DNA from: a virus
Lineage: Duplodnaviria > Caudoviricetes
Length of the DNA: 61,969 bases
Reading direction: 5' to 3' (one strand)
IMG/VR virus record: IMGVR_UViG_3300015242_000003
Span: 1-61,969 of that record
The position numbers and the translations under genes were made by a program. This document shows, piece by piece, positions 991-61,969 of the stretch. The notes below the pieces were generated by a model, which was not told where the DNA came from, searched no databases, and saw nothing but the letters and a program-made list of their open reading frames with translations. Within the stretch, counting starts at the first letter, position 1. Each line of letters begins with the position of its first letter.

Positions 991-3528
991 GTGACAACAG
1001 CAAGGGTTTTGTCAAAATGGGATATCCTGGATAGCCCGGAGGTCGACTGGCGGCCGCATACCGCGCAGGAAGAGGTTGTCTCGAGCACCGCTCGGTACCG
1101 CGCGGTATCCGCTGGGCGGCGTTTCGGTAAGTCCGATATTGGCGGGCATGAGCTGATTCCTGAGTTCTTTCTTACCCATGGGCAACAGAATGAATTGGCG
1201 GATGCGGGCAAGCGGCGGGAGTTCTGGATTTGCGGGCCTGAATATTGTGCTGATGTTGAGACTGAGATTCTCACGATTGACGGATGGAGGACGCAAGGGC
1301 AACTCGACGGGGACGAGATCGTCCTTACTCAGAATCCAGAGACCGGCTTAGCTGCCTGGCAGCAGATGGACGGGGTGAATGTATTTCATTCCAACCATAG
1401 GTACGTTTATGAGTCGGAATTCCGAGGCCACAGCAGTGTGACAACGGGCGAGCACCGCTGGCTTGTGAAGCATGGAAAGCCAGGTACTTACTACAAGACG
1501 CAAACTAGCGGGAAGTTCAGAAATCCCAATGCACGGCCAGGGCAAGAACGGGTTTGGTATCAGTTTGATATTACCGAAGATTTAGGAAGGGCCCAGAACG
1601 GCATGATCTCCTGTGCGGCACCTGTCGTCAACCTGCCGACGCAGGCGAAGTACGAGGACGCCCTAGTTGAATTGGTGGCTTGGTACTGGACCGAAGGACA
1701 GGCTTGGGGCAAAGGCATCGCTATCGCCCAAAATGAAGGGGTGAACTTCGACCGTATCCGAGCGGCCTGTACGGCGATGCTCGGGCCCGCGAGTGTTCAT
1801 ATGCGAACCGGTAGCGTCGTGGCTACTAAGGCGATGTGGCGCACGCTCGAACGCAAGGGGGCGAACGAGCGACAAAAGGGTGTCGCGCTCAACGGTATTG
1901 CCGCTGCTGAGATCGTGTCAGTGTGTCGAGGCAGCGACAAGATCGTCACACCAGAGTTCATCGCATCGCTTACCCAGGCCCAGCTGGAATTGTTTATCAA
2001 GGTGAGCATTCTGGCTGATGCGAACAGCACTTGGGAATGGGGCGAGGATGTTGAGATCGGCCAGAAGGTAGAGGCCCGAATTGATAGGCTGCAAATGGCA
2101 TGCCAGATTGCCGGCATCCGCACCCAGAAGTTCGAGAGCGAGAATGAATATGGCCCTTGGTATGTTTTGAGCATCTACGTGCGCTCGAATATCCAGGCTG
2201 GAACGATCGCGAAGAATGCAGTGCGGAAGAAGCATTCTGGAATTGTCTGGTGCCCGACAACACCTCATGGGACTTGGCTTGCTCGACGCAGAGGCAGCGT
2301 CTTCTTTACTGGCAATTCGGACGCCGAAAAGGAATTCCGGGTTATCTACAACAGCCTTAAGCGGCTAGGCGTTCCATTCGACCGGCCTGGTACTTACTAC
2401 AACCCGGAGAATGGCGAACTCGACCTCTCCTGCTTGAGTGGGTTGTTCCAGGTGCACGGCAAGAGCGCGAAGTATCCGGGGACTCTGGTGGGCGAGGGCT
2501 TGTCCGGCGTGATTCTCGCCGAGGCAGCGAAGCTCAAGCAGAACGTCTGGACAAAGTACCTCCAGCCCACACTCGCGGACTTCAACGGTTGGGCGCTGCT
2601 TACCTCTACGCCCGAGGGGCGGAACTGGTTCTACGACGTCTACGCGGCGGCAAAGGACCCGCGCAACCGGGACTGGGCGAGCTGGAGATTCCCCGCTTGG
2701 GCAAACCCGTACGTCTACAAGACGAAAACGAAGACCGCTGATGTGTTAGCGATTCAGAAGCTGATGCGGCTGCCGGACTATCCGGCTCAGGACGTAATCG
2801 CGAAGATGTTTGCTGTTGACGACGAGATCTTGTCAAGGCTCTTCTCTATGACAGAGGAAACCTTCAACCAGGAAATCGCTGCACTCTTTACCGAATTCGT
2901 CGGCCGGGTATTCAAGGCATTCGACGAGGAATACCACGTCCGCGACCTTCAATTCAATCCGGCCTGGAAGACGTTCGGTTGCGTCGACTGGGGCTTCACA
3001 AACCCCTCAGTTTGGTTGCTTTGCCAGGAGAGCCCCTGGGGCGAGATTAACGTGCTCGATGAGTTCTACCAGAATGGATTGACGCCTGCTGAGTTCGGTG
3101 TTGAAGTGAAAGCTCGTGGCCTGGCACCCTCGGGACTCCGGACGTTCTACCCGGATCCCGCGAGCCCCGGTGACACTCGGCAGCTCGAACAGATTATTGG
3201 GGTAAAGCACACAGGCGGCACCGGCGGAGAACTGAAGGACCGACTCGATGCGATCCGGCTCGCCCTGAAACCGATGCTGCGCCACATCCCCGCCGACGAC
3301 CCGGGCAACCGACCGCGCCTGCTCTTCTCGCGGCGGGTACCGAACTGCGTGCGGGAGTTCTCGATCTACCGGTACCCGAAAACCCGGGACGAGCAGAACA
3401 GTGCAGAATTGCCTATGAAGGAGAACGACCACACACCGGAAGCCCTCGGTCGGTTCTTCGCTGCCGACGGCACACCAGCTGTCGAGGCCCAGGCAACTCG
3501 GGTTTCCCGCGCGAACGTAAGGGGATAG
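991..3528 (+). CDS. terL: terminase large subunit containing an intein
   Basis: Walker A-like AGRRFGKS, Walker B-like VILAEAA, STPEG coupling motif, C-terminal nuclease motif VDWGFTNP...NDH; lies upstream of the portal. Confidence 0.95.
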   Translation: MTTARVLSKWDILDSPEVDWRPHTAQEEVVSSTARYRAVSAGRRFGKSDIGGHELIPEFFLTHGQQNELADAGKRREFWICGPEYCADVETEILTIDGWRTQGQLDGDEIVLTQNPETGLAAWQQMDGVNVFHSNHRYVYESEFRGHSSVTTGEHRWLVKHGKPGTYYKTQTSGKFRNPNARPGQERVWYQFDITEDLGRAQNGMISCAAPVVNLPTQAKYEDALVELVAWYWTEGQAWGKGIAIAQNEGVNFDRIRAACTAMLGPASVHMRTGSVVATKAMWRTLERKGANERQKGVALNGIAAAEIVSVCRGSDKIVTPEFIASLTQAQLELFIKVSILADANSTWEWGEDVEIGQKVEARIDRLQMACQIAGIRTQKFESENEYGPWYVLSIYVRSNIQAGTIAKNAVRKKHSGIVWCPTTPHGTWLARRRGSVFFTGNSDAEKEFRVIYNSLKRLGVPFDRPGTYYNPENGELDLSCLSGLFQVHGKSAKYPGTLVGEGLSGVILAEAAKLKQNVWTKYLQPTLADFNGWALLTSTPEGRNWFYDVYAAAKDPRNRDWASWRFPAWANPYVYKTKTKTADVLAIQKLMRLPDYPAQDVIAKMFAVDDEILSRLFSMTEETFNQEIAALFTEFVGRVFKAFDEEYHVRDLQFNPAWKTFGCVDWGFTNPSVWLLCQESPWGEINVLDEFYQNGLTPAEFGVEVKARGLAPSGLRTFYPDPASPGDTRQLEQIIGVKHTGGTGGELKDRLDAIRLALKPMLRHIPADDPGNRPRLLFSRRVPNCVREFSIYRYPKTRDEQNSAELPMKENDHTPEALGRFFAADGTPAVEAQATRVSRANVRG
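1246..2316 (+). mobile_element. intein (357 aa) with a degenerate LAGLIDADG-like homing endonuclease
   Basis: Starts C-ADVETEILTIDGW, block B TTGEHRW, ends WLARRRGSVFFTGN with +1 Ser; LAGLIDADG-like blocks LVAWYWTEG and FIKVSILADA. Confidence 0.9.
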
Positions 3529-3536
3529 GAGAAAAC

Positions 3537-5105
3537 ATGAGCTTCGAGCCATATGCGAGCGCAGTCCCGTTCTTCGACACCGCGAAAGCACCGACGCATG
3601 TCGTGGACCCGGAGGACAAGCTCCGCTTGCAGAGCTACGACCTGTACGAGAACATCTATTGGTCAGTGCCCCAGACTTTCAAGATTATGCAGCGTGGCCA
3701 GGACAGCCGGCCGATCTACCTGCCTTCCGCACGTAAGATGATCGAGGCGTGCAACCGTTTCCTCGGAGTTGACTTCGGTTTCTTCGTGACGGGCACCGAC
3801 AGCGAGGACGAGCGCGTCGGCGTTACCGCACTCCTCCATAAGCTGTTCAAGCGCGAGAACTTCTTTATGAAGTACGCGACTCAGAAGCGCTACAGTCTCA
3901 TTCGTGGCGACGCCCTTTGGCACATCGTTGGCGACCCGACGAAGGCACCTGGCGAAGGCGAGGCGCTGTCGATCTACGAGTTGGACCCGCGTACCTACTT
4001 CCCGATCTTCGACAAGGACAACGCGGAGAAGCGGATCGGTTGCCACCTCGTCGATATCATTATCGACCCGAAGGACGAGAACAAGTCGAAGAAGGTCGCG
4101 CGTCGACAGACCTACCGCAAGGAAGTTGACGATAGCGGCACGGTAACGATTACGTCCGAGTTGGCGCTGTTCGAACCGAACGCCTGGGACGATCGGCATC
4201 TGGAGCCGAAGGACATTAAGCGGATCCGGACCGTTACGAACCTGTTCCCGTTGCCACCCGCGATTACCTCGCTGCCGGTCTACGAGATCCCGAACAACCG
4301 GATCCCTGGAAAGACGTTCGGATATTCCGAGCTGCTTGGGGTCGAGCGCGTTTTCGCCGCCGTAAACCAGGCGGTTTCCGATGAGGAGCTTTCCCTCGCT
4401 ATGGCGGGGCTCGGTGTATTCTGGACCACCGCCGGTCCGCCGGTAAACGAGGCTGGCCAGATAGTGCCCTGGGACATTGGGCCCGCACAGGTTGTCGAGG
4501 TCGCGACCGACGCGACTTTCAACCGGCTGCAAGGCGTTACCAGTGTGGCCCCGATGATCGACCACATGAAGTTCATTCTGGACGAGACGCAGGGTGGTTT
4601 GGGGATTCCTGATATCGCCGCTGGAAAGGTCGATGTCTCAATCGCGGAGTCCGGCATCTCGTTGCAGTTGCAATTGGCGCCGTTGCTCGCGAAGAACGCT
4701 GAGAAGGAACTCACGCTTATTAGCTCTTATGACCAGTTCTTCTATGACCTGGTGCATAGCTGGATGGTGGCATTTGAGGGAATTTCGGACGGCAGCACGG
4801 CAACCGCAGTCGCGGTAGTCGGGGACCCGATGCCGAAGAACCGTAAGGCCCAGATTGACGAGATCCTGGCCCTCGTCGGCGGGAACCTGCTCTCGATCGA
4901 AGAGGGCCGGATCCGCCTCGTCAAGCTTGGCTACGAGTTCGATGGGATGTCAGCCGACCCGATTATCTCGCAGGAGCGCGAACTCGCCCGAGCTCGCAAC
5001 GCCGACCCCTTCCTGGACCGCCTTAACGAAGAGACTGGGGCCGCTGGGCAAGGTGTAGCACCAGCAAACAATGGCGCGGTGCCCGTTCCGGGGGTCCCGG
5101 CATGA
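3537..5105 (+). CDS. portal protein
   Basis: 522 aa directly after TerL; portal-like motifs RGDALWH, FGYSEL, AESGISL. Confidence 0.88.
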   Translation: MSFEPYASAVPFFDTAKAPTHVVDPEDKLRLQSYDLYENIYWSVPQTFKIMQRGQDSRPIYLPSARKMIEACNRFLGVDFGFFVTGTDSEDERVGVTALLHKLFKRENFFMKYATQKRYSLIRGDALWHIVGDPTKAPGEGEALSIYELDPRTYFPIFDKDNAEKRIGCHLVDIIIDPKDENKSKKVARRQTYRKEVDDSGTVTITSELALFEPNAWDDRHLEPKDIKRIRTVTNLFPLPPAITSLPVYEIPNNRIPGKTFGYSELLGVERVFAAVNQAVSDEELSLAMAGLGVFWTTAGPPVNEAGQIVPWDIGPAQVVEVATDATFNRLQGVTSVAPMIDHMKFILDETQGGLGIPDIAAGKVDVSIAESGISLQLQLAPLLAKNAEKELTLISSYDQFFYDLVHSWMVAFEGISDGSTATAVAVVGDPMPKNRKAQIDEILALVGGNLLSIEEGRIRLVKLGYEFDGMSADPIISQERELARARNADPFLDRLNEETGAAGQGVAPANNGAVPVPGVPA

Positions 5106-5518
5106 CGACGAGGAAAGGCATGCCGGCTGATCTCCGAGATCGGCTCATCGCGTCGGCTCTCGAACACGCGCCGCGCGAAATCGTCGGCTACGTCGTGCAC
5201 CCTTGGGAACTTATCTTCGTGCCAAATATCGCGGAAGACCCGAACCTGTTCGAAGTTGCTGACGAGGTGCAGCTCCAGGTCTATACGGAATATGGTAAAC
5301 GTCTAGTTGGCATATTCCATAGCCATCCGGCCGGTAGACGTACCCCGTCTACTTCGGACATCGAATACGCCCCACAAGGATTGCGCTACTGGATTATCAC
5401 TCCGATCGAAGTAATAGAATGGGATATGGAATATGACCCGCCCATTGAGAGAACGTGGAACAGCCCAGATAGCGCGGGCCTGGTTGCATCCGTTGCTCCG
5501 GATCGTCGAGAGGACTGA
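5102..5518 (+). CDS. JAB/MPN (JAMM) metalloprotease
   Basis: PREIVG (catalytic E) ... GIFHSHPAGRRTPSTSD matches HxH-x7-S-x2-D. Confidence 0.9.
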   Translation: MTTRKGMPADLRDRLIASALEHAPREIVGYVVHPWELIFVPNIAEDPNLFEVADEVQLQVYTEYGKRLVGIFHSHPAGRRTPSTSDIEYAPQGLRYWIITPIEVIEWDMEYDPPIERTWNSPDSAGLVASVAPDRRED

Positions 5519-6947
5519 CCTCGAGATTCGGCGGCTGCTGAGCAAGGCAGCGAGTGCGGCTGAGTCCGATCTCGTCCGCCTCTCCCCCGGCAACGTCGTC
5601 CGACGCGGCCAGATGTCGGGTGCGCTGCAGGCGCTACGTGGCACGCTCGGGCTCCTGTTCGCGGATGTTGGCGACACAGTCAAGGCGGGCCGGACCGACG
5701 CCGCACAGGCCGCGAGGGAGGCGTCTTTCGATTGGGTCGAGCCTCTGCTTCGAGAAGCCGGCCTGTCGACCGCCGAACGCGACATGTTGCGGGCTGGTGC
5801 GATAGCGACTACCGAGCGGAACGTCGACCTGATGCTGCGGCGGTACAACAGCGAGCAGCTTGCGTTAAGCAAGCAGGTCTACAAGACGAAGCAGCTTTCT
5901 CAAGGCTGGGTAGATCGCGTTATCAACACGTCGATCGGACGCGGCCTTACCGCTCGAGAGATCGCCCGCGAGGTCCGAAGCAGCATCCGGCCGAACACGG
6001 CGGGTGGCGTGGCTCATGCCGCCCTCCGCTTAGGACGGACAGAGCTGAACAACAGCTTCCATACGGCTGCTATCGTGGCGAACGCGGACAAGCCCTGGGC
6101 AGAGGCTATGGAATGGCATTTGTCCGGATCGCACGCGCGGAAAGACATCTGCGACGAGTATGCTGGCAAGGATAGTTGGGGTTTGGGGGATGGGATATTC
6201 CCAAAGAACAAGGTGCCAGACAAGCCGCATCCGAACTGCTTCTGCTTTATCGTGCCGAAGTTGCAGGATGAGGACGATTTCGTCGCTTCGTTCATTCGTG
6301 GGGATTATGACGACGTCATTAATATCACCCCAGCCCCTGTCGCGCCCGTGCTGCCAAAGGCAAAGGAGGGGCGAGCCGCACTAGGTGCTGTACCTCGGGC
6401 ACTGTGGGATAGCGACCTGGAATCCTTCGAGGAACGCAGCATCTTCCAGAGCTACAAGAGCTTCGCATACGTCAACTACAACAAATACTTGCGTGACGGG
6501 AGCGGCGCGTTCTACCGGGACGAGATCGAGACGATGGACCGGATTCTGGATTCCTCGCCCCTGAAAGAAGACGCGACTTTCTGGCGTGGGATTAAGGCAC
6601 CCCGGAACGTTATGGGCGACTTGGTAGACGGAGACCTGACGGGTATGGAGTGGCAGGAAGATGCCTTCTCGTCTCTGTCGGCCGATCGTCGGGTCGCGGA
6701 CGCCTTCGCAGAAGACGGCATGGTGATGCGGGTCCTGGTGCGCAAGGGCGCTCCGATGCTCCAGCTGAGCGAGTGGGCGAAAGAGGGGCAGAGCACCCAG
6801 GTCTACGAAGCGGAGGGGCTTGGCGGACGAGGCTGGAAGTTCCGTGTTATTTCGGATAATGGAATCGACGATAAAGGTGTCCGCAACGTGGATGTCGAGG
6901 TGATCAACAGTGGGCGGAACGGTACCGACCCCTGGGTCCGAAGCTGA
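5433..6947 (+). CDS. MuF-like minor head protein fused to a VIP2-like ADP-ribosyltransferase
   Basis: MuF motifs RLGRTE, DICDEYA, PHPNCFC; Pro-rich linker; ART R-S-E motifs FWRG, FSSLS, YEAE. Confidence 0.85.
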   Translation: MTRPLRERGTAQIARAWLHPLLRIVERTDLEIRRLLSKAASAAESDLVRLSPGNVVRRGQMSGALQALRGTLGLLFADVGDTVKAGRTDAAQAAREASFDWVEPLLREAGLSTAERDMLRAGAIATTERNVDLMLRRYNSEQLALSKQVYKTKQLSQGWVDRVINTSIGRGLTAREIAREVRSSIRPNTAGGVAHAALRLGRTELNNSFHTAAIVANADKPWAEAMEWHLSGSHARKDICDEYAGKDSWGLGDGIFPKNKVPDKPHPNCFCFIVPKLQDEDDFVASFIRGDYDDVINITPAPVAPVLPKAKEGRAALGAVPRALWDSDLESFEERSIFQSYKSFAYVNYNKYLRDGSGAFYRDEIETMDRILDSSPLKEDATFWRGIKAPRNVMGDLVDGDLTGMEWQEDAFSSLSADRRVADAFAEDGMVMRVLVRKGAPMLQLSEWAKEGQSTQVYEAEGLGGRGWKFRVISDNGIDDKGVRNVDVEVINSGRNGTDPWVRS

Positions 6948-28282: not shown

Positions 28283-28311
28283 TTGCCAATCTGGAGGAAG
28301 TCGAGTAGGCT
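28283..28311 (+). promoter_or_regulatory. promoter TTGCCA-N17-TAGGCT
   Basis: Matches the repeated consensus. Confidence 0.8.
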
Positions 28312-28420
28312 GGTGTTCGGTCTCAGGCCCGGAGAGACCAGAAAACCCAGACCCGGGCATCGCTGGCCGGCCCTACTGACAATCGGCGGCAGTAGGGTCG
28401 GTCCGGTTACGGAGGAAGCC

Positions 28421-56887: not shown

Positions 56888-56996
56888 GATAGAACCGCGA
56901 GACGCTTAGTCCTTTGTGCACTTAGAGCACGTGCCTAAGCGTCTCGCGGGGGTCCGTACGGAGGGCCGGACATTCGAAGTCTAGCAGGAGGTAAAC

Positions 56997-59579
56997 GTGG
57001 TACGACGCACGCCGAATTCGCCTGGTCCCAGTGCGTCGGAAAGCGGTTCGAATTCGGGTGGTGGCGACAACCTCCGAAGCAAGCGTCCTTGGCATTCCTT
57101 TGCCCAAAAATACTTTGAAGCCGGCTGGGTGCCGCTCCCTTTGCCGCCTCGGCGGAAAAGTTCACCGCCCACTGGCAGCACTGGCAAGTACGATATGCCA
57201 GACAAGCAAAAGGTCATGAAGTGGCATAAGGATTATCAGGCTAACGGCAATATCGCGCTGCGGATGCCCGATACCGTAATTGGTATTGACGTAGATGCCT
57301 ATGGCGAGAAGGTCGGCCGCGCCTCGTTCGATGAACTCCTCGCAGACCTCGGGCCGCTCCCGGACACCTGGACTCTTACGGCGCGGTCGGACGGCGTCTC
57401 GGGCATCCGGTTCTTCCGGGTCCCGGGCGGCCTTCATTGGTCGGGCCAACCGATCGCCGATATCCAGATAATTCAGAATCATCACAGGTACGCAGTCGCA
57501 TACCCCTCGGTTCACCCGGACACGAAAAAGATCTACCTGTGGTATCCTCCTGGCACGAGCCTGAATGGGACGCCCGAAGGCATTACGGTCGACAACGAGA
57601 TCCCGCTGCTCTCCGACCTCGCGAAGATGCCCGCTCCGTGGGTCGAGGGGCTCTCGGGCGGCAAGATCTGGTCCGCTCTCCCGTCCGACGTCTCCGCGAC
57701 CCGGACGGACATCCTCCGGTGGGTAAAGGAGCGGCCTGCCGGGGAGATGTGCCGCCTCATGCGGAAGCAAGCGCAGGCAGCGGTCGACGAGATGTCCGGC
57801 GGCGCGCACGACGCATTGAACTCCCGAGTCTACTCAGTCGTTAGTTTGGCTAGCGAAGGACATTCCGGCATCGTCAAAGCGATCCGGCTGATGCGAGATT
57901 CCTTCTATGAAGAAGTAAAGGCCCCCGGACGCAAGGGGCGACGTTCAGACAGACAGGCCATCCTCGAGTTCAACCGGGTCCGAGACGGCGCCGTTCGTAT
58001 CATGATGGCTTCGGTTGCCGACGGCGAATCGGTTGCTGAGGACGAGTGCGGGTGCGCGGAAAACTCGTTGTCGTGGGGCGAGAAGCTCGGCATCCAAGTA
58101 GAGGAACCGGAGAGTGGTTCGGTTCGTAAACGTGCTCGAATGGGTAAAGCTAAACCAGCCGATAAATATACATATGACGATTCGGGGAACGCAGACCATT
58201 TGTTGGATATCCTAGATGGGTCAGCGTATTACGTCGCAGGGGATAAGGCTTGGTATTTCTGGGCCCCAGATACAGGGGCTTGGGTTCCTGACCCAAATGG
58301 GAACCGAGCTATGCAGGCGTCTCAGCTTGTCGGGAAGCGACAGCGAGAGTTGTGTGATGAGTGGACTGACAAGCTCGTATCATCAGGGTCATCAGTATCA
58401 GCAGATGTCGGAGGAGACCTGGCCGGAAAGATCGGGTTGCTTTCTAAGCACGCGAAGATCTCTTCAGACCACAAAGGGCTCGTTAATATGGCGAAGATCG
58501 CCGCATCGCAAGATCGGGCACTGCAGGATGCCGAAGCCTTTGATTGTTTACCCGCGCTGCTTGCCTGCCCGAATGGAACGCTTGAGTTAGGGGCTTCGGA
58601 GGTTCGGTTCCGGCCGGCTTCCCGTTCAGATCTCATTTCGCTGTCCACTGGAACCCGTTACGCTCCAGGGGCTAAATTGGAAGCCTGGGATGCGTATCTT
58701 GCTCGTTTCTTGCCCGATGCCTCGGTTGCGCGGTATGTGCAGAAAATCGCGGGCTACACCCTGTTCGGTTCCAACCCAGAGCGAAAAATGTTCTTCATGC
58801 AGGGCACCACCTCTACTGGAAAAACCACCTTCGTCAACGCGTTTAATGGGGCGCTCGGAGAATATGCTGGCACAATGAACTTGTCGCTGTTCAGAGACAA
58901 CCAGGATGAGCGGCCGAGAGCAGACCTTGTTCGTGGGCTTGGGAAAAGGCTGTTGGCCGCTTCGGAGGCCTCGGCGGAGTGGTATCTGCACGCGGACCAG
59001 GTCAAGCGGCTCACTGGCGGAGATCCGATCCGGGCACGGCTGCTCAACTCGTCGAATTATGTCGAGCGGATTCCCGCGTTTACTCCGTGGGTCGCGACGA
59101 ACGCGATGCCGCAGATCCTCGGCAAGGACAAAGCGATCGAACGGCGGCTTGTCTGCGTGCCGTTCCGCGAGGTTGTAGATGCCGGTAGCGAGAACTTCGC
59201 CGTGTCGGTCGCCCTCGCATCCGCGGAGGGGCGTTCTGCCCTGCTCGCGTGGGCTGTACGGGGCTGGGAGCTGTACCGGGAAGAAGGCATGGCCGCGCCC
59301 GAGGTGGTGCTACAGGAGACCGCGAAGATGCTGGGCGAGATGACCGATCTCGATGTGTTCTTGACCGAGGTAACGCGGGTCGACGCTGGTGGCAAAGTCC
59401 TGGCGCACGAGCTTTTCGAGCGCTGGATGATGTGGGCTGAAGTGGGGAATGTAGACGTCTCCCGGATGTCAATTAACAAGTTCGGACGGGAGCTAACTGG
59501 ACGGGGATACGGCATTCAGACTACATCGAAGGGCGGCAAAAGCGTAAAGATTCGTACTGGTCTTTCCTGGGTTAAGTAG
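56997..59579 (+). CDS. bifunctional primase-polymerase fused to an SF3 (D5/P4-like) helicase
   Basis: VIGIDVD, YPSVHP; GTTSTGKTT, ASE, VATNAMP, ERRLVCVPF. Confidence 0.92.
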   Translation: MVRRTPNSPGPSASESGSNSGGGDNLRSKRPWHSFAQKYFEAGWVPLPLPPRRKSSPPTGSTGKYDMPDKQKVMKWHKDYQANGNIALRMPDTVIGIDVDAYGEKVGRASFDELLADLGPLPDTWTLTARSDGVSGIRFFRVPGGLHWSGQPIADIQIIQNHHRYAVAYPSVHPDTKKIYLWYPPGTSLNGTPEGITVDNEIPLLSDLAKMPAPWVEGLSGGKIWSALPSDVSATRTDILRWVKERPAGEMCRLMRKQAQAAVDEMSGGAHDALNSRVYSVVSLASEGHSGIVKAIRLMRDSFYEEVKAPGRKGRRSDRQAILEFNRVRDGAVRIMMASVADGESVAEDECGCAENSLSWGEKLGIQVEEPESGSVRKRARMGKAKPADKYTYDDSGNADHLLDILDGSAYYVAGDKAWYFWAPDTGAWVPDPNGNRAMQASQLVGKRQRELCDEWTDKLVSSGSSVSADVGGDLAGKIGLLSKHAKISSDHKGLVNMAKIAASQDRALQDAEAFDCLPALLACPNGTLELGASEVRFRPASRSDLISLSTGTRYAPGAKLEAWDAYLARFLPDASVARYVQKIAGYTLFGSNPERKMFFMQGTTSTGKTTFVNAFNGALGEYAGTMNLSLFRDNQDERPRADLVRGLGKRLLAASEASAEWYLHADQVKRLTGGDPIRARLLNSSNYVERIPAFTPWVATNAMPQILGKDKAIERRLVCVPFREVVDAGSENFAVSVALASAEGRSALLAWAVRGWELYREEGMAAPEVVLQETAKMLGEMTDLDVFLTEVTRVDAGGKVLAHELFERWMMWAEVGNVDVSRMSINKFGRELTGRGYGIQTTSKGGKSVKIRTGLSWVK

Positions 59580-59930
59580 AGGGCCTATTCGATCTTGAAA
59601 ACGGTAGTTAAAAGGGTAGTTCGATCTTGGTTTGATATTTTTACTGCACGGTTGGTTGTTGGTTTGCAATTAACCAGTTGAAAAAGCTCCTGAAGACGAG
59701 TAGTTAGCTACTGGTTTCAGGAGGGATCGGTAGCCAATGAAATGCCTGGTAGAGATGGGTTTCTACTATAATAACTACCGAACTACCGATTTTAAAGGGG
59801 GAGAGGTAGTTTAATAGAGTAACCGGAGAGCCTCTCCGTTTAGAGGGTTTTGAAACGCTACGCAGCTCTAACTTCTAGCAATCGGTAGCCGGTAGTTTTC
59901 AGGGTAGGATTTCGGTGTAATTTGGAGGGA
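59580..59930. repeat. putative replication origin: AT-rich with GGTAG(TT)/(AA)CTACC repeats
   Basis: Non-coding and AT-rich, about ten GGTAG/CTACC copies in both orientations right after the primase-helicase gene. Confidence 0.6.
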
Positions 59931-59932
59931 AA

Positions 59933-60082
59933 GTGAGCGAAAATCCGCTGGATTATTTGGATCTACATATCGCGTTGTTGGCGGAGAAGTTGGAGTCGAT
60001 CGAGAGCAGGATCTCTGGGGTATCGTCTTCGTTAGATCGGATTGCCGATGCTTTGGAAGCGATGTTGGAGAAGGGCGAGTAA
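59933..60082 (+). CDS. small coiled-coil protein (not in the ORF track)
   Basis: GGAGGG RBS, GTG start, 49 aa heptad pattern, TAATG coupling to the next ORF. Confidence 0.5.
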   Translation: MSENPLDYLDLHIALLAEKLESIESRISGVSSSLDRIADALEAMLEKGE

Positions 60083-60276
60083 TGGCTGACAAGCTGAGGG
60101 ATGTTGAGCCCGAGGGGCCAACTGAATTTAGTTGGGGACGGGGAATTCAGGCGCCCACGAGTTTGGGAGCCGTTCCCAGTAACCGCGAGGCGCATCGGGC
60201 GATGCTTCGAGTTGACCAGGAGAGCGAAGATCCGGGAGCAGTGGCGAGCTATGAGCACTACATTCGAGAGGGATGA
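60082..60276 (+). CDS. hypothetical protein
   Basis: TAATG coupling. Confidence 0.4.
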   Translation: MADKLRDVEPEGPTEFSWGRGIQAPTSLGAVPSNREAHRAMLRVDQESEDPGAVASYEHYIREG

Positions 60277-61087
60277 GGAAGCTGAGTGGGACGCGCTGCC
60301 TTTGGACGACCCACGAAGGAAGCTGACGCCTGAACGCTTTCGGGAACTGAGGGCGCAGGCCACGAAGACGCGAGACGACTACTACTCGACTCCGGAGCCC
60401 GAGCAACCCACAGACGCGGATATCGACGCGTCGTGGGGCTTTACCCCGACGATGACGCCTGAGGAGCGACGCGCGCTAATTCGCCAACGCGCGGACGACG
60501 ACGAGATCGAGGAAGACCCGGAACTCGCCGAGCGCACGAAATGGGAGATTCGGGCTCTTCGCGAGGAAGAAGACCTCGTCGCCGAGCTGTCGCGGAAGTC
60601 GCTCACGTCGCTGCCGCGCGAAGTGCGCAAGCTCGTTCGGCAGTTCCCGAACAACATGAAGCTGAGGGCGCTGTACGACCGGCTCGCGACCGAGCTGTAC
60701 GAGCGCACTGACGAGACGCTCAAGGCCGGCCTGCTCGATGCGGTCGACACGATGCTGGACGTTATGGAGAATGGCGAGGACGCGCAACGGCTCAAGGCCG
60801 CGACCTACGTTTTCGAGCGGTTGCGCGGCAAGACTCCAGAGATCGTGCAGGTTTCGGCCGACAAGCCGTTCCAGGTCGTGCTCGAGCGTCTCGTAACGGG
60901 GCCTAGGAGGGCCCGTGCGGCTCTCGAGGCTGCCGAGGGGGAAGAAGTGCTCGATGCGGAGGTAATCTCGGGAGAGGCCCATACAGGGCCGCCAGAGGCG
61001 CAGAAAGCCGAGAAGGCCGACAACGGCTCCCGTACTGGGGAAGACTTGTTCGGCGAAGAGCGCGCGATGATGCGCGAGTGGAGCTGA
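60251..61087 (+). CDS. putative terminase small subunit (start uncertain)
   Basis: AVDTMLDVM...QRLKAATYVFERLRGK motif; lies upstream of terL on the circular map. Confidence 0.55.
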   Translation: MSTTFERDEEAEWDALPLDDPRRKLTPERFRELRAQATKTRDDYYSTPEPEQPTDADIDASWGFTPTMTPEERRALIRQRADDDEIEEDPELAERTKWEIRALREEEDLVAELSRKSLTSLPREVRKLVRQFPNNMKLRALYDRLATELYERTDETLKAGLLDAVDTMLDVMENGEDAQRLKAATYVFERLRGKTPEIVQVSADKPFQVVLERLVTGPRRARAALEAAEGEEVLDAEVISGEAHTGPPEAQKAEKADNGSRTGEDLFGEERAMMREWS

Positions 61088-61090
61088 AAG

Positions 61091-61274
61091 GCAACTTCAC
61101 AGAGCGAGGACCAGGCGGGATGACGCGAGCCGAGCGTTCGCGGGTTTCATCCCCGCGACTCGATCGACCCTTGCCTCTGCCACCCTCGCGGGTGCGGGCT
61201 GTTCAGGCGTTCCGTTGCCCCGATGTACTCGGGTACTCCTCGCGGCCCTACTTGGTGTCGCTCTGTGAAGTTGT
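61091..61274 (-). ncRNA. candidate ~184-nt structured non-coding RNA
   Basis: Consensus promoter at 61281-61309; predicted start coincides with a perfect 16-bp 5'/3' closing stem; internal helices and a GNRA loop. Confidence 0.65.
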
Positions 61275-61280
61275 AACGCC

Positions 61281-61309
61281 AGTCTACTGGTTGGTCTGGA
61301 GTTTGGCAA
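61281..61309 (-). promoter_or_regulatory. promoter TTGCCA-N17-TAGACT
   Basis: Matches the repeated consensus. Confidence 0.8.
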
Positions 61310-61338
61310 TACTCCGAATGGGGCAACTTGGAGACATG

Positions 61339-61360
61339 AAAAAGCCCCCTTTCGGGGGCC
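61339..61360 (-). terminator. intrinsic terminator
   Basis: Minus strand GCCCCC-GAAA-GGGGGC-TTTTT. Confidence 0.8.
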
Positions 61361-61377
61361 TGTGTGCGGGAAGGGTT

Positions 61378-61584
61378 TTAGGCCTTGTCGGCCGCCCACT
61401 CGCGGTTGGCCAGCTGGCGGGCCTTGTGGTAGTCGCCCGTACGGTGGATCGTCACGGTCTGGTTCGCGGGGGAGACCCGAGCGATCTCGTAGCAGTCCGA
61501 GCCGTCGCGGTAGGTGCTGGTGATGAGCGCGATGGCCCAGCCGTTGCGGGTGTTGGCAACCTTGGCGTTCTGCGAGTTCGTCAT
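61378..61584 (-). CDS. small hypothetical protein, probably leaderless
   Basis: TATAGT -10 box 6 nt upstream of ATG, no SD sequence; followed by a terminator. Confidence 0.65.
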   Translation of the reverse strand: MTNSQNAKVANTRNGWAIALITSTYRDGSDCYEIARVSPANQTVTIHRTGDYHKARQLANREWAADKA

Positions 61585-61707
61585 ACCACAACTATACACG
61601 GATCTCCAGAACTGGGAATACTCCGAATGGCTTAACTTGGACACGCCAGCAGCCCGACCGTTGCCGGTCGGGTCTTGCGCAAAAGAGCGGGTAACCTCCA
61701 GATACGA

Positions 61708-61738
61708 GAAAACCCGACCCCCGTAGGGGCCGGGTCTT
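61708..61738 (-). terminator. intrinsic terminator
   Basis: Minus strand GACCCGGCCCC-TACG-GGGGTCGGGTT-TTCT. Confidence 0.75.
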
Positions 61739-61742
61739 GGTG

Positions 61743-61901
61743 TTAGCCGTTGAGGAGGGCTGCGTACTCGTGCGCCTTCTCGCGGGTGAGGTTGTCGCTG
61801 TGGAGTCCGGTCTTCAGGTCCTCGACCCGGTAGGTGCTCTCCTGTCCGGTGACGCTGCGCTCCATGACGATGAATTGCTCGGTGATCAGGTTGTCGCTCA
61901 T
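61743..61901 (-). CDS. small hypothetical protein, 52 aa (not in the ORF track)
   Basis: MSDNLITEQFIVMERS...AALLNG*; GGGAG RBS, with its own promoter and terminator. Confidence 0.7.
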   Translation of the reverse strand: MSDNLITEQFIVMERSVTGQESTYRVEDLKTGLHSDNLTREKAHEYAALLNG

Positions 61902-61969
61902 GTCCGCTCCCGCTGTTCAGTTGGTGTAGCACCAGCCTACTCCTCAGATCTGCATTTGGCAAGTCTGGA

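Follow-up and report, generated by a model that had tools for sequence, protein, structure and literature searches.

A candidate non-coding RNA element with a phage-family promoter and paired ends beside the terS-like gene of a soil actinophage genome

Genome and locus

We describe here a promoter-led element lying next to a terS-like gene in an IMG/VR virus record of 61,969 nt, the whole of which is the window analyzed. The record is complete, and its terminal 77 nt are identical at both ends, so that the map is circular or terminally redundant. It encodes a Prim-Pol/D5 primase, a DnaE-type polymerase, ThyX, an SNF2 helicase, a Cas4-like nuclease, a portal protein, and terL, a gene set typical, judged from its predicted products, of a lytic actinophage. 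By terL and the terS-like protein, its nearest named relatives are phages of Gordonia and Mycobacterium, which point to a host among the actinobacteria. [quoted passage not shown] The stretch was found in one sequencing run, a soil-metagenome DNA run that may be the source of the record, and in no RNA run; in the DNA run a single 61,916-nt contig spans the region with no differences and no alternative joint. Five other matches in the same run are short, weak pieces from other organisms.

Two features of the structural gene region were recorded in passing. The terL gene (991-3528) encodes 845 aa, and Gordonia phage terminases match it in two pieces with 62% covered, which suggests an intein or other large insertion. 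A 504-aa protein (5433-6947), whose gene adjoins the portal gene, carries at its C terminus a domain of the ADP-ribosyltransferase type (PF03496, E 1e-6).

The gap of ~1.9 kb between the terS-like gene and terL begins with a small minus-strand cassette of three units, the third of which is the element. The features of this region are as follows:

60101-61087, plus strand: terS-like gene (phrog_10899, E 1.5e-13), 278 aa from the protein-database start
61092-61107, minus strand: left arm of the inverted repeat, forming the 3′ arm of the stem in the RNA, followed by CCUUUCA
61108-61257, minus strand: interior, 150 nt, GC-rich, with local hairpins (e.g., 61138-61158 and 61182-61193)
61258-61273, minus strand: right arm of the inverted repeat, forming the 5′ arm of the stem in the RNA
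61274, minus strand: predicted transcription start, an A 7 nt after the −10 hexamer, as read from the sequence
61277-61309, minus strand: promoter P3, leading into the element (third unit), TTGCCAA-N15-GTAGACTGGCG, an exact match to the phage consensus
61304-61335, minus strand: 32-nt motif upstream of and overlapping the −35 of P3, 84% shared with a motif at P2
61361-61342, minus strand: intrinsic terminator of the 71-aa gene unit, a canonical hairpin with a U-tract
61618-61591, minus strand: promoter P2, leading into a leaderless gene of 68 to 71 aa at 61378-61593 (second unit)
61962-61930, minus strand: promoter P1, followed by a 52-aa gene and a terminator (first unit)

The original prediction placed the element in convergence with the terS-like gene, and it does converge: the stop of that gene at 61087 faces the left arm of the repeat across 4 nt.

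Promoter and promoter family

The hexamers of P3 are TTGCCA-17-TAGACT, with the −35 at 61309-61304 and the −10 at 61286-61281. The phage promoter consensus, TTGCCAA-N15-GTAGRCTGGYG, has 18 specified positions. When up to one mismatch was allowed, it was matched eight times in the record and not at all in 100 shuffles; the eight matches represent seven distinct sites, since the matches at 38-70 and 61930-61962 are one site read twice through the 77-nt terminal overlap. Six distinct sites are exact, which accounts for the six promoters counted originally, and P3 is indeed one that faces a region with no ORF. Each of the other six family sites precedes an ORF with a Shine-Dalgarno sequence. At five of them the start codon lies 28 to 39 nt past the −10 hexamer, and the remaining one, at 28283, has a 109-nt leader. 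P3 is thus the sole family member without a Shine-Dalgarno-bearing ORF. The leader at the 28283 site (28283-28420) contains two hairpins and is followed by the GTG start of a 189-aa gene; at this length the structured 5′ UTR is unusual for the phage.

The upstream terminator named in the original prediction was recovered at 61361-61342, where a canonical hairpin and U-tract insulate P3 from upstream transcription. The counterpart of the 32-nt motif at P2 occupies 61613-61644, and the 13-mer core is found nowhere else in the genome. The motif is probably a site for a regulator common to P2 and P3, and its restriction to these two promoters suggests joint regulation of the element with the neighboring small protein. 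A search of IMG/VR with the P2/P3 motif pattern found no other occurrence of the element. For the early timing originally proposed, the sigma-70-type promoter is the one indication.

Closing stem, interior, and 3′ end

The element is bounded by a perfect 16-bp inverted repeat (61092-61107 and 61258-61273) with a spacer of 150 nt. Among perfect inverted repeats with loops of ≤400 nt in the 61,969-nt record this is the longest, followed by repeats of 15 and 13 bp; the longest repeat in each dinucleotide-shuffled sequence was 11 to 14 bp, and 16 bp was reached in 0 of 40. The predicted start was described as abutting the stem, and with the repeat confirmed the offset is exact, the stem beginning at 61273, 1 nt after the predicted +1. 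In folding predictions the stem has a mean pair probability of 0.99 in contexts of 190 to 475 nt with any 3′ extension, and the duplex is predicted at −27.2 kcal/mol. Promoter and closing stem together are a real, statistically solid sequence feature. All pairs are Watson-Crick, with zero G-U pairs, so a DNA-level origin, or a mutational one (quasi-palindrome correction), fits the stem as well as an RNA helix does.

The folding z score of the whole element was −4.1 and −5.2 in two runs, with no shuffle as good, against −2.1 to +2.0 in 24 background windows. For the interior alone z was −1.73 on the minus strand (12 of 300 shuffles equal or better) and −0.32 on the plus strand (99 of 300), with minimum free energies (MFE) of −65.2 and −62.1 kcal/mol, respectively, a slight minus-strand advantage. 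Since the interior lies inside the background spread, the strong value of the whole element stems from the closing stem. The inward pairing described originally (ACCA/TGGT, CGCGAG/CTCGCG, CCGAG/CTCGG, and two hairpins) is present in the sequence, but the interior as a whole folds no better than its shuffles. The MFE, centroid, and MEA folds, all single-sequence predictions, are mutually discordant; the CCGAG/CTCGG helix is missing from the centroid, where CTCGG pairs locally. All three are multibranched, so the rod shape first suggested gives way to a predicted multibranched junction. Duplexes of the interior with 73 phage start regions reached −65.6 kcal/mol at best, against a shuffled-interior mean of −62.8 kcal/mol, and one third of 60 shuffles did equally well, which leaves no signal for trans targets.

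Both neighboring minus-strand units finish in hairpins with U-tracts. At the element, no U-tract terminator was found 3′ of the stem, where the minus strand continues with CCUUUCA; on the plus strand the repeat runs into UAACGCC. A test of the element for intrinsic termination, scanning 59500-61969, returned only 61361-61342, and in the same interval no plus-strand terminator was found. The inverted repeat itself was considered as an intrinsic terminator, possibly a bidirectional one, and was rejected: its arms are 150 nt apart and neither is followed by a U-tract. Because no canonical terminator lies past the 3′ arm, the length of 184 nt is a presumed one. Beyond the stem the minus-strand RNA would be C-rich and G-poor (C/G 1.65 over 200 nt) and antisense to the terS-like gene. 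Such RNA is rut-like, and an untranslated read-through could plausibly meet a Rho stop and be trimmed back to the stem.

Coding potential

The original prediction saw no convincing ORF downstream of P3. This was upheld, and codon periodicity is absent as well: GC content in the three codon phases of the element is 0.61, 0.66, and 0.69, a spread of 0.08, whereas coding sequence in this phage has a mean spread of 0.29 (309 windows from 19 genes), with 5.5% of windows equally flat. The two neighboring small genes have GC3 values of 0.90 and 0.91. Downstream of P3, a GTG at +98 opens a 28-aa frame that abuts its own purine run with no spacer; the other frames run antisense into the terS-like gene. 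A GAGGAG occurs in the leader, and no start codon lies within usable range of it. A tblastn search with two reading frames of the element gave no protein-level match, and a word search for a 59-aa frame in a set of 5.8 billion proteins gave none. On these sequence grounds the element is unlikely to be coding.

RNA family searches

An Rfam cmscan of 60800-61969 on both strands at E ≤ 10 gave three matches, all at noise level, and the minus strand of the element had none. The sole match inside the element is mir-3940 on the plus strand, scoring 16.5 bits where the gathering cutoff is 84 (E 8.8). At gathering thresholds the whole window gave 0 matches, and ARAGORN found 0 tRNA or tmRNA genes in it. 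The original reader had recognized no family, and the Infernal/Rfam check agrees, with no matching family even at E ≤ 10. Membership in 6S RNA, Y RNA/YrlA, phage pRNA, or the tRNA- and tmRNA-like families is not supported, for want of any Rfam covariance-model match. The suggested likeness to 6S/Ms1 polymerase decoys does not hold up beyond this either: the predicted element is not a rod with a central bubble, and its interior is not significantly structured. Ro60 had been named as a possible partner; the phage record has 0 matches to the TROVE domain (PF05731), for which positive controls were obtained in two genomes, so no such protein is phage encoded, and a host Ro60 is possible. A retron was rejected, as the phage record has 0 matches to the reverse transcriptase model PF00078 and no gene follows the element on the minus strand.

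Relatives and the variable slot

No copy of the element was found by megablast and blastn against 50,697 phage records or by blastn against 72,556 plasmids, and the phage genome holds no second copy. The two-arm pattern had 0 matches in 185,579 species genomes. In IMG/VR the exact 16-mer occurs at 24 loci, each with a single arm and no other BLAST similarity; lacking further likeness, these are treated as chance. The element is therefore an orphan, present in one genome among the collections searched.

A large protein set contains 17 relatives of the terS-like protein, not counting the protein itself. A search with the alignment of this protein found five metagenome loci, four distant IMG/VR loci, and none in species genomes; single-protein scans of IMG/VR with the terS-like protein and terL found no relatives. 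In the closest relative (L030/L031) the terS-like protein is 77% identical in amino acids and terL 86% identical in nucleotides. The terS-like gene of L031 can be aligned with the window up to 61097, and likeness returns at the terminator of the 52-aa unit (61700-61734, 97%) and runs on through P1, small plus-strand genes, and terL. What lies between is a variable slot: in the window 61098-61699, with the element, P3, the terminator, the 71-aa gene, and P2; in L031 4841-5641. In L031 the slot is AT-rich, is 801 bases long, and carries on its plus strand a gene for a DNA methyltransferase (5031-5534; phrog_757, E 5.9e-19), which looks like foreign cargo. That the contents of the slot differ between close relatives makes the element accessory cargo. 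In L033 the region between the terS-like and terL genes is different again and uninformative.

The small leaderless gene (68 to 71 aa) has six homologues of 58 to 90% identity in varied genomic contexts. For the 88%-identical homologue in IMG/VR loci L039/L040 (L039 2501-2707), the common part is the coding sequence only, at 91% over 208 nt; this homologue is also leaderless, and neither P3 nor the element follows it. The element is likewise absent from the whole records L039 and L041, both of which carry the 71-aa gene. By these comparisons the gene is a mobile accessory gene, present elsewhere without the element. Pfam gave no match for the small neighboring genes. The 68-aa protein is predicted to form four strands and a C-terminal helix (pLDDT 78.8), with a best Foldseek E of ~0.1 (PUR repeat) and a best VIA Z of 6.4.

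Two other noncoding sites of the window were compared with relatives. The AT-rich intergenic array at 59580-59930, between the primase and the terS-like gene, contains at least 10 GGTAGTT/CGGTAG motifs in both orientations. L031 retains it (78%), and the corresponding position in L034 carries GTACCGA repeats; the array is a candidate for a replication origin or for a site recognized by terminase. A perfect hairpin of 15 to 16 bp with a loop of 25 lies in the primase leader (56894-56950), and its counterpart in L031 (594-648) is still perfect through two compensatory double changes (GACGC to GTCCC and the partner arm). This covariation would fit an RNA leader with structure or, alternatively, a palindromic site for a protein.

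Interpretation

The reading we tentatively prefer, at somewhat under an even chance, is that of an accessory, moron-like non-coding unit, whose product would be an RNA of ~185 nt with locked, protected ends that acts in trans. From the membership of P3 in the promoter family, the stem, the lack of coding signal, and the presence or absence of the element between relatives, all directly observed, we infer transcription, a 3′ end, stability, and a trans function. The host sigma-70-type RNA polymerase would start at about 61274 on the minus strand from the phage-family promoter. The first 16 bases after the +1 A would pair with RNA bases 168 to 183, followed by a 4-bp extension, and this pairing would close the 150-nt GC-rich interior into a panhandle. 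The 3′ end would most likely arise by Rho-type termination in the untranslated C-rich RNA and trimming to the stem or, alternatively, by cleavage at the stem itself. The resulting RNA of ~185 nt, protected from nucleases by its locked ends, would probably serve as a decoy or sponge for a host or phage protein and be dispensable cargo.

An insulated promoter of exact consensus with nothing to translate supports this reading, as do the 32-nt motif that P3 shares with P2 and the fact that the one exceptional structure joins the start of the transcript to a position lying 4 nt beyond the converging gene. The orphan status of the element and its absence from the closest relative and from L039 and L041 count against the reading, as do an interior no more structured than its shuffles, the discordant folds, the missing terminator, the stem free of G-U pairs, and the lack of an Rfam family. 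The dedicated non-coding RNA originally proposed thus stands in its parts (promoter, no ORF, paired ends, upstream terminator) and as a whole is, tentatively, the best single reading of the sequence.

One competing explanation, which we consider unlikely, is cis-antisense or convergent transcription, in which P3 fires into the 3′ end of the terS-like transcription unit, and duplex formation or polymerase collision lowers or delimits expression of that gene and of read-through RNA, with no trans role. The convergent geometry, with its 4-nt gap, suits it well. In the absence of a plus-strand terminator in 59500-61969, the two RNAs would be complementary over ~184 nt, and the lack of a discrete minus-strand terminator after the stem and of significant interior structure favors this explanation too. 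For antisense action, however, a perfect 16-bp repeat placed exactly at +1 is unnecessary, and the closest relative manages without the element. An RNA ending at the stem, moreover, would overlap the terS-like coding sequence by 0 nt.

It is also rather improbable, though worth weighing, that the locus is a non-functional remnant, either a promoter that has lost its small gene or a duplicated promoter module with junk, the repeat having arisen by a template-switch (quasi-palindrome) mutation. The stem without G-U pairs favors this, and occurrence in one genome only and an interior z near background are consistent with decay. The GAGGAG lies ~33 nt into the transcript, at the Shine-Dalgarno position of the sister promoters, and is followed by ...ACATC where two sister promoters have ...ACATG. 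Against decay, the promoter consensus is intact at 18 of 18 positions, no codon periodicity is left where the neighbors have a GC3 of 0.9, and the repeat, far above shuffles, sits exactly at +1; phage genomes are also compact.

A role at the DNA level, as a pac/cos or terminase-binding site, as the ends of a miniature transposon, or as an invertible segment, is very unlikely. In favor of such a role, the element adjoins the terS-like gene, distant relatives have their physical ends between the terS-like and terL genes, and the repeat is perfectly Watson-Crick. The packaging site that the original prediction held open as an alternative is made unlikely by the closest relative, which keeps both the terS-like gene and terL without the element; this argues against a pac/cos role in the lineage, and the pac/cos site was rejected on that ground, with the conserved 59580-59930 motif array the better candidate. 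A miniature inverted-repeat transposable element was rejected too: it would have its repeats, but the flanks (AAAGG and TAACG) show no target-site duplication and there are no further copies. The two-arm pattern, at 0 of 185,579 species genomes, and the 24 IMG/VR 16-mer loci, which carry one arm each and are alike in nothing else, also speak against a DNA-level element. No resolvase or tyrosine recombinase is encoded in the phage record, and the independent 61,916-nt contig has no alternative joint.

An mRNA for a micro-peptide (a frame of 28 aa from the GTG, or 17 aa from its internal ATG, that closes in the 3′ arm; or one of 25 aa from an ATC 11 nt past GAGGAG) is extremely unlikely, for although the frames are open and the leader has its GAGGAG, the GTG and ATG starts both abut purine runs without a spacer, ATC is a rare start codon, codon periodicity is lacking, the frame searches found no homologues, and the start and stop regions are buried in predicted helices.

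Returning to the non-coding unit, a more far-reaching version of it is a long shot: an "RNA moron," that is, an exchangeable structured cassette in a counter-defense hot spot beside the terminase genes, where a sister phage has its DNA methyltransferase, co-regulated through the 32-nt motif with the small protein of four strands and a helix and acting as a decoy or sponge against a host immune sensor, nuclease, or RNA polymerase. If true, both the RNA family and this class of RNA-based accessory function in actinophages would be new. A mere remnant or an antisense brake would be ordinary. The base of evidence is one sequence from one soil metagenome. As a test case the locus would be compact and cleanly delimited, with an exact-consensus promoter, locked ends, a length of ~185 nt, and dispensability in a sister phage.

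Comparison with known systems

Phage morons are cargo units of promoter, gene, and terminator inserted between conserved genes. The element resembles them in its own promoter, its insulation by an upstream terminator, and its place in a slot that varies between close relatives, where the neighboring cargo genes are exchanged independently; the moron-type cassette features of own promoter, insulation, and presence or absence between relatives were thus all found. Unlike morons, it carries a payload without an ORF, and no terminator belonging to it was found.

The RNA polymerase-binding RNAs 6S and Ms1 have 5′ and 3′ ends joined in a closing stem, and 6S RNA forms a long, irregular rod whose large central bubble imitates an open promoter. 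The candidate is similar in its length of about 184 nt and its paired ends, but unlike 6S RNA it has a predicted low-confidence multibranched junction for an interior, is phage borne, and is dispensable in a relative. A 6S-like polymerase decoy would therefore make up a small subset of the non-coding reading. The OOP RNA of phage lambda is a short antisense RNA with a promoter and a terminator of its own; it is transcribed toward the 3′ end of cII and overlaps the end of the coding sequence. The candidate, too, would be a small RNA transcribed from a separate promoter toward the 3′ end of a neighboring gene; in contrast to OOP, it has a long-range stem and, if it ends there, falls 4 nt short of the stop codon. 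Retron msr-msd RNA is closed by the a1/a2 inverted repeats and shares with the candidate the inverted repeats at the ends of a non-coding RNA of ~150 to 200 nt.

A literature search, with terms not aimed at "panhandle" phage RNAs, found no description of the element. Among actinophages, an abundant right-end non-coding RNA driven by Pleft has been described in mycobacteriophages L5, D29, and StarStuff (PMC5712189), and Rhodococcus phage WC1 has three highly transcribed non-coding regions, nc_1 to nc_3 (PMC10986025). As presented in the portions of these papers drawn on here, the end RNAs share with the candidate the host group, a leftward host-type promoter directed into an ORF-less stretch, and a location in the region where relatives have their genome ends. 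They differ in comprising a ~500-nt region with several RNA species, against ~185 nt for the candidate, and in having been shown experimentally, where the candidate is known from its sequence; a 16-bp end-to-end stem is not described for them in those portions (PMC5712189, PMC10986025). In a blastn search of 50,697 phage records, said to come from GenBank and not necessarily including these phages, the element showed no sequence similarity. The candidate would thus be a new, unrelated addition to the known actinophage non-coding RNAs, with a distinctive panhandle design.
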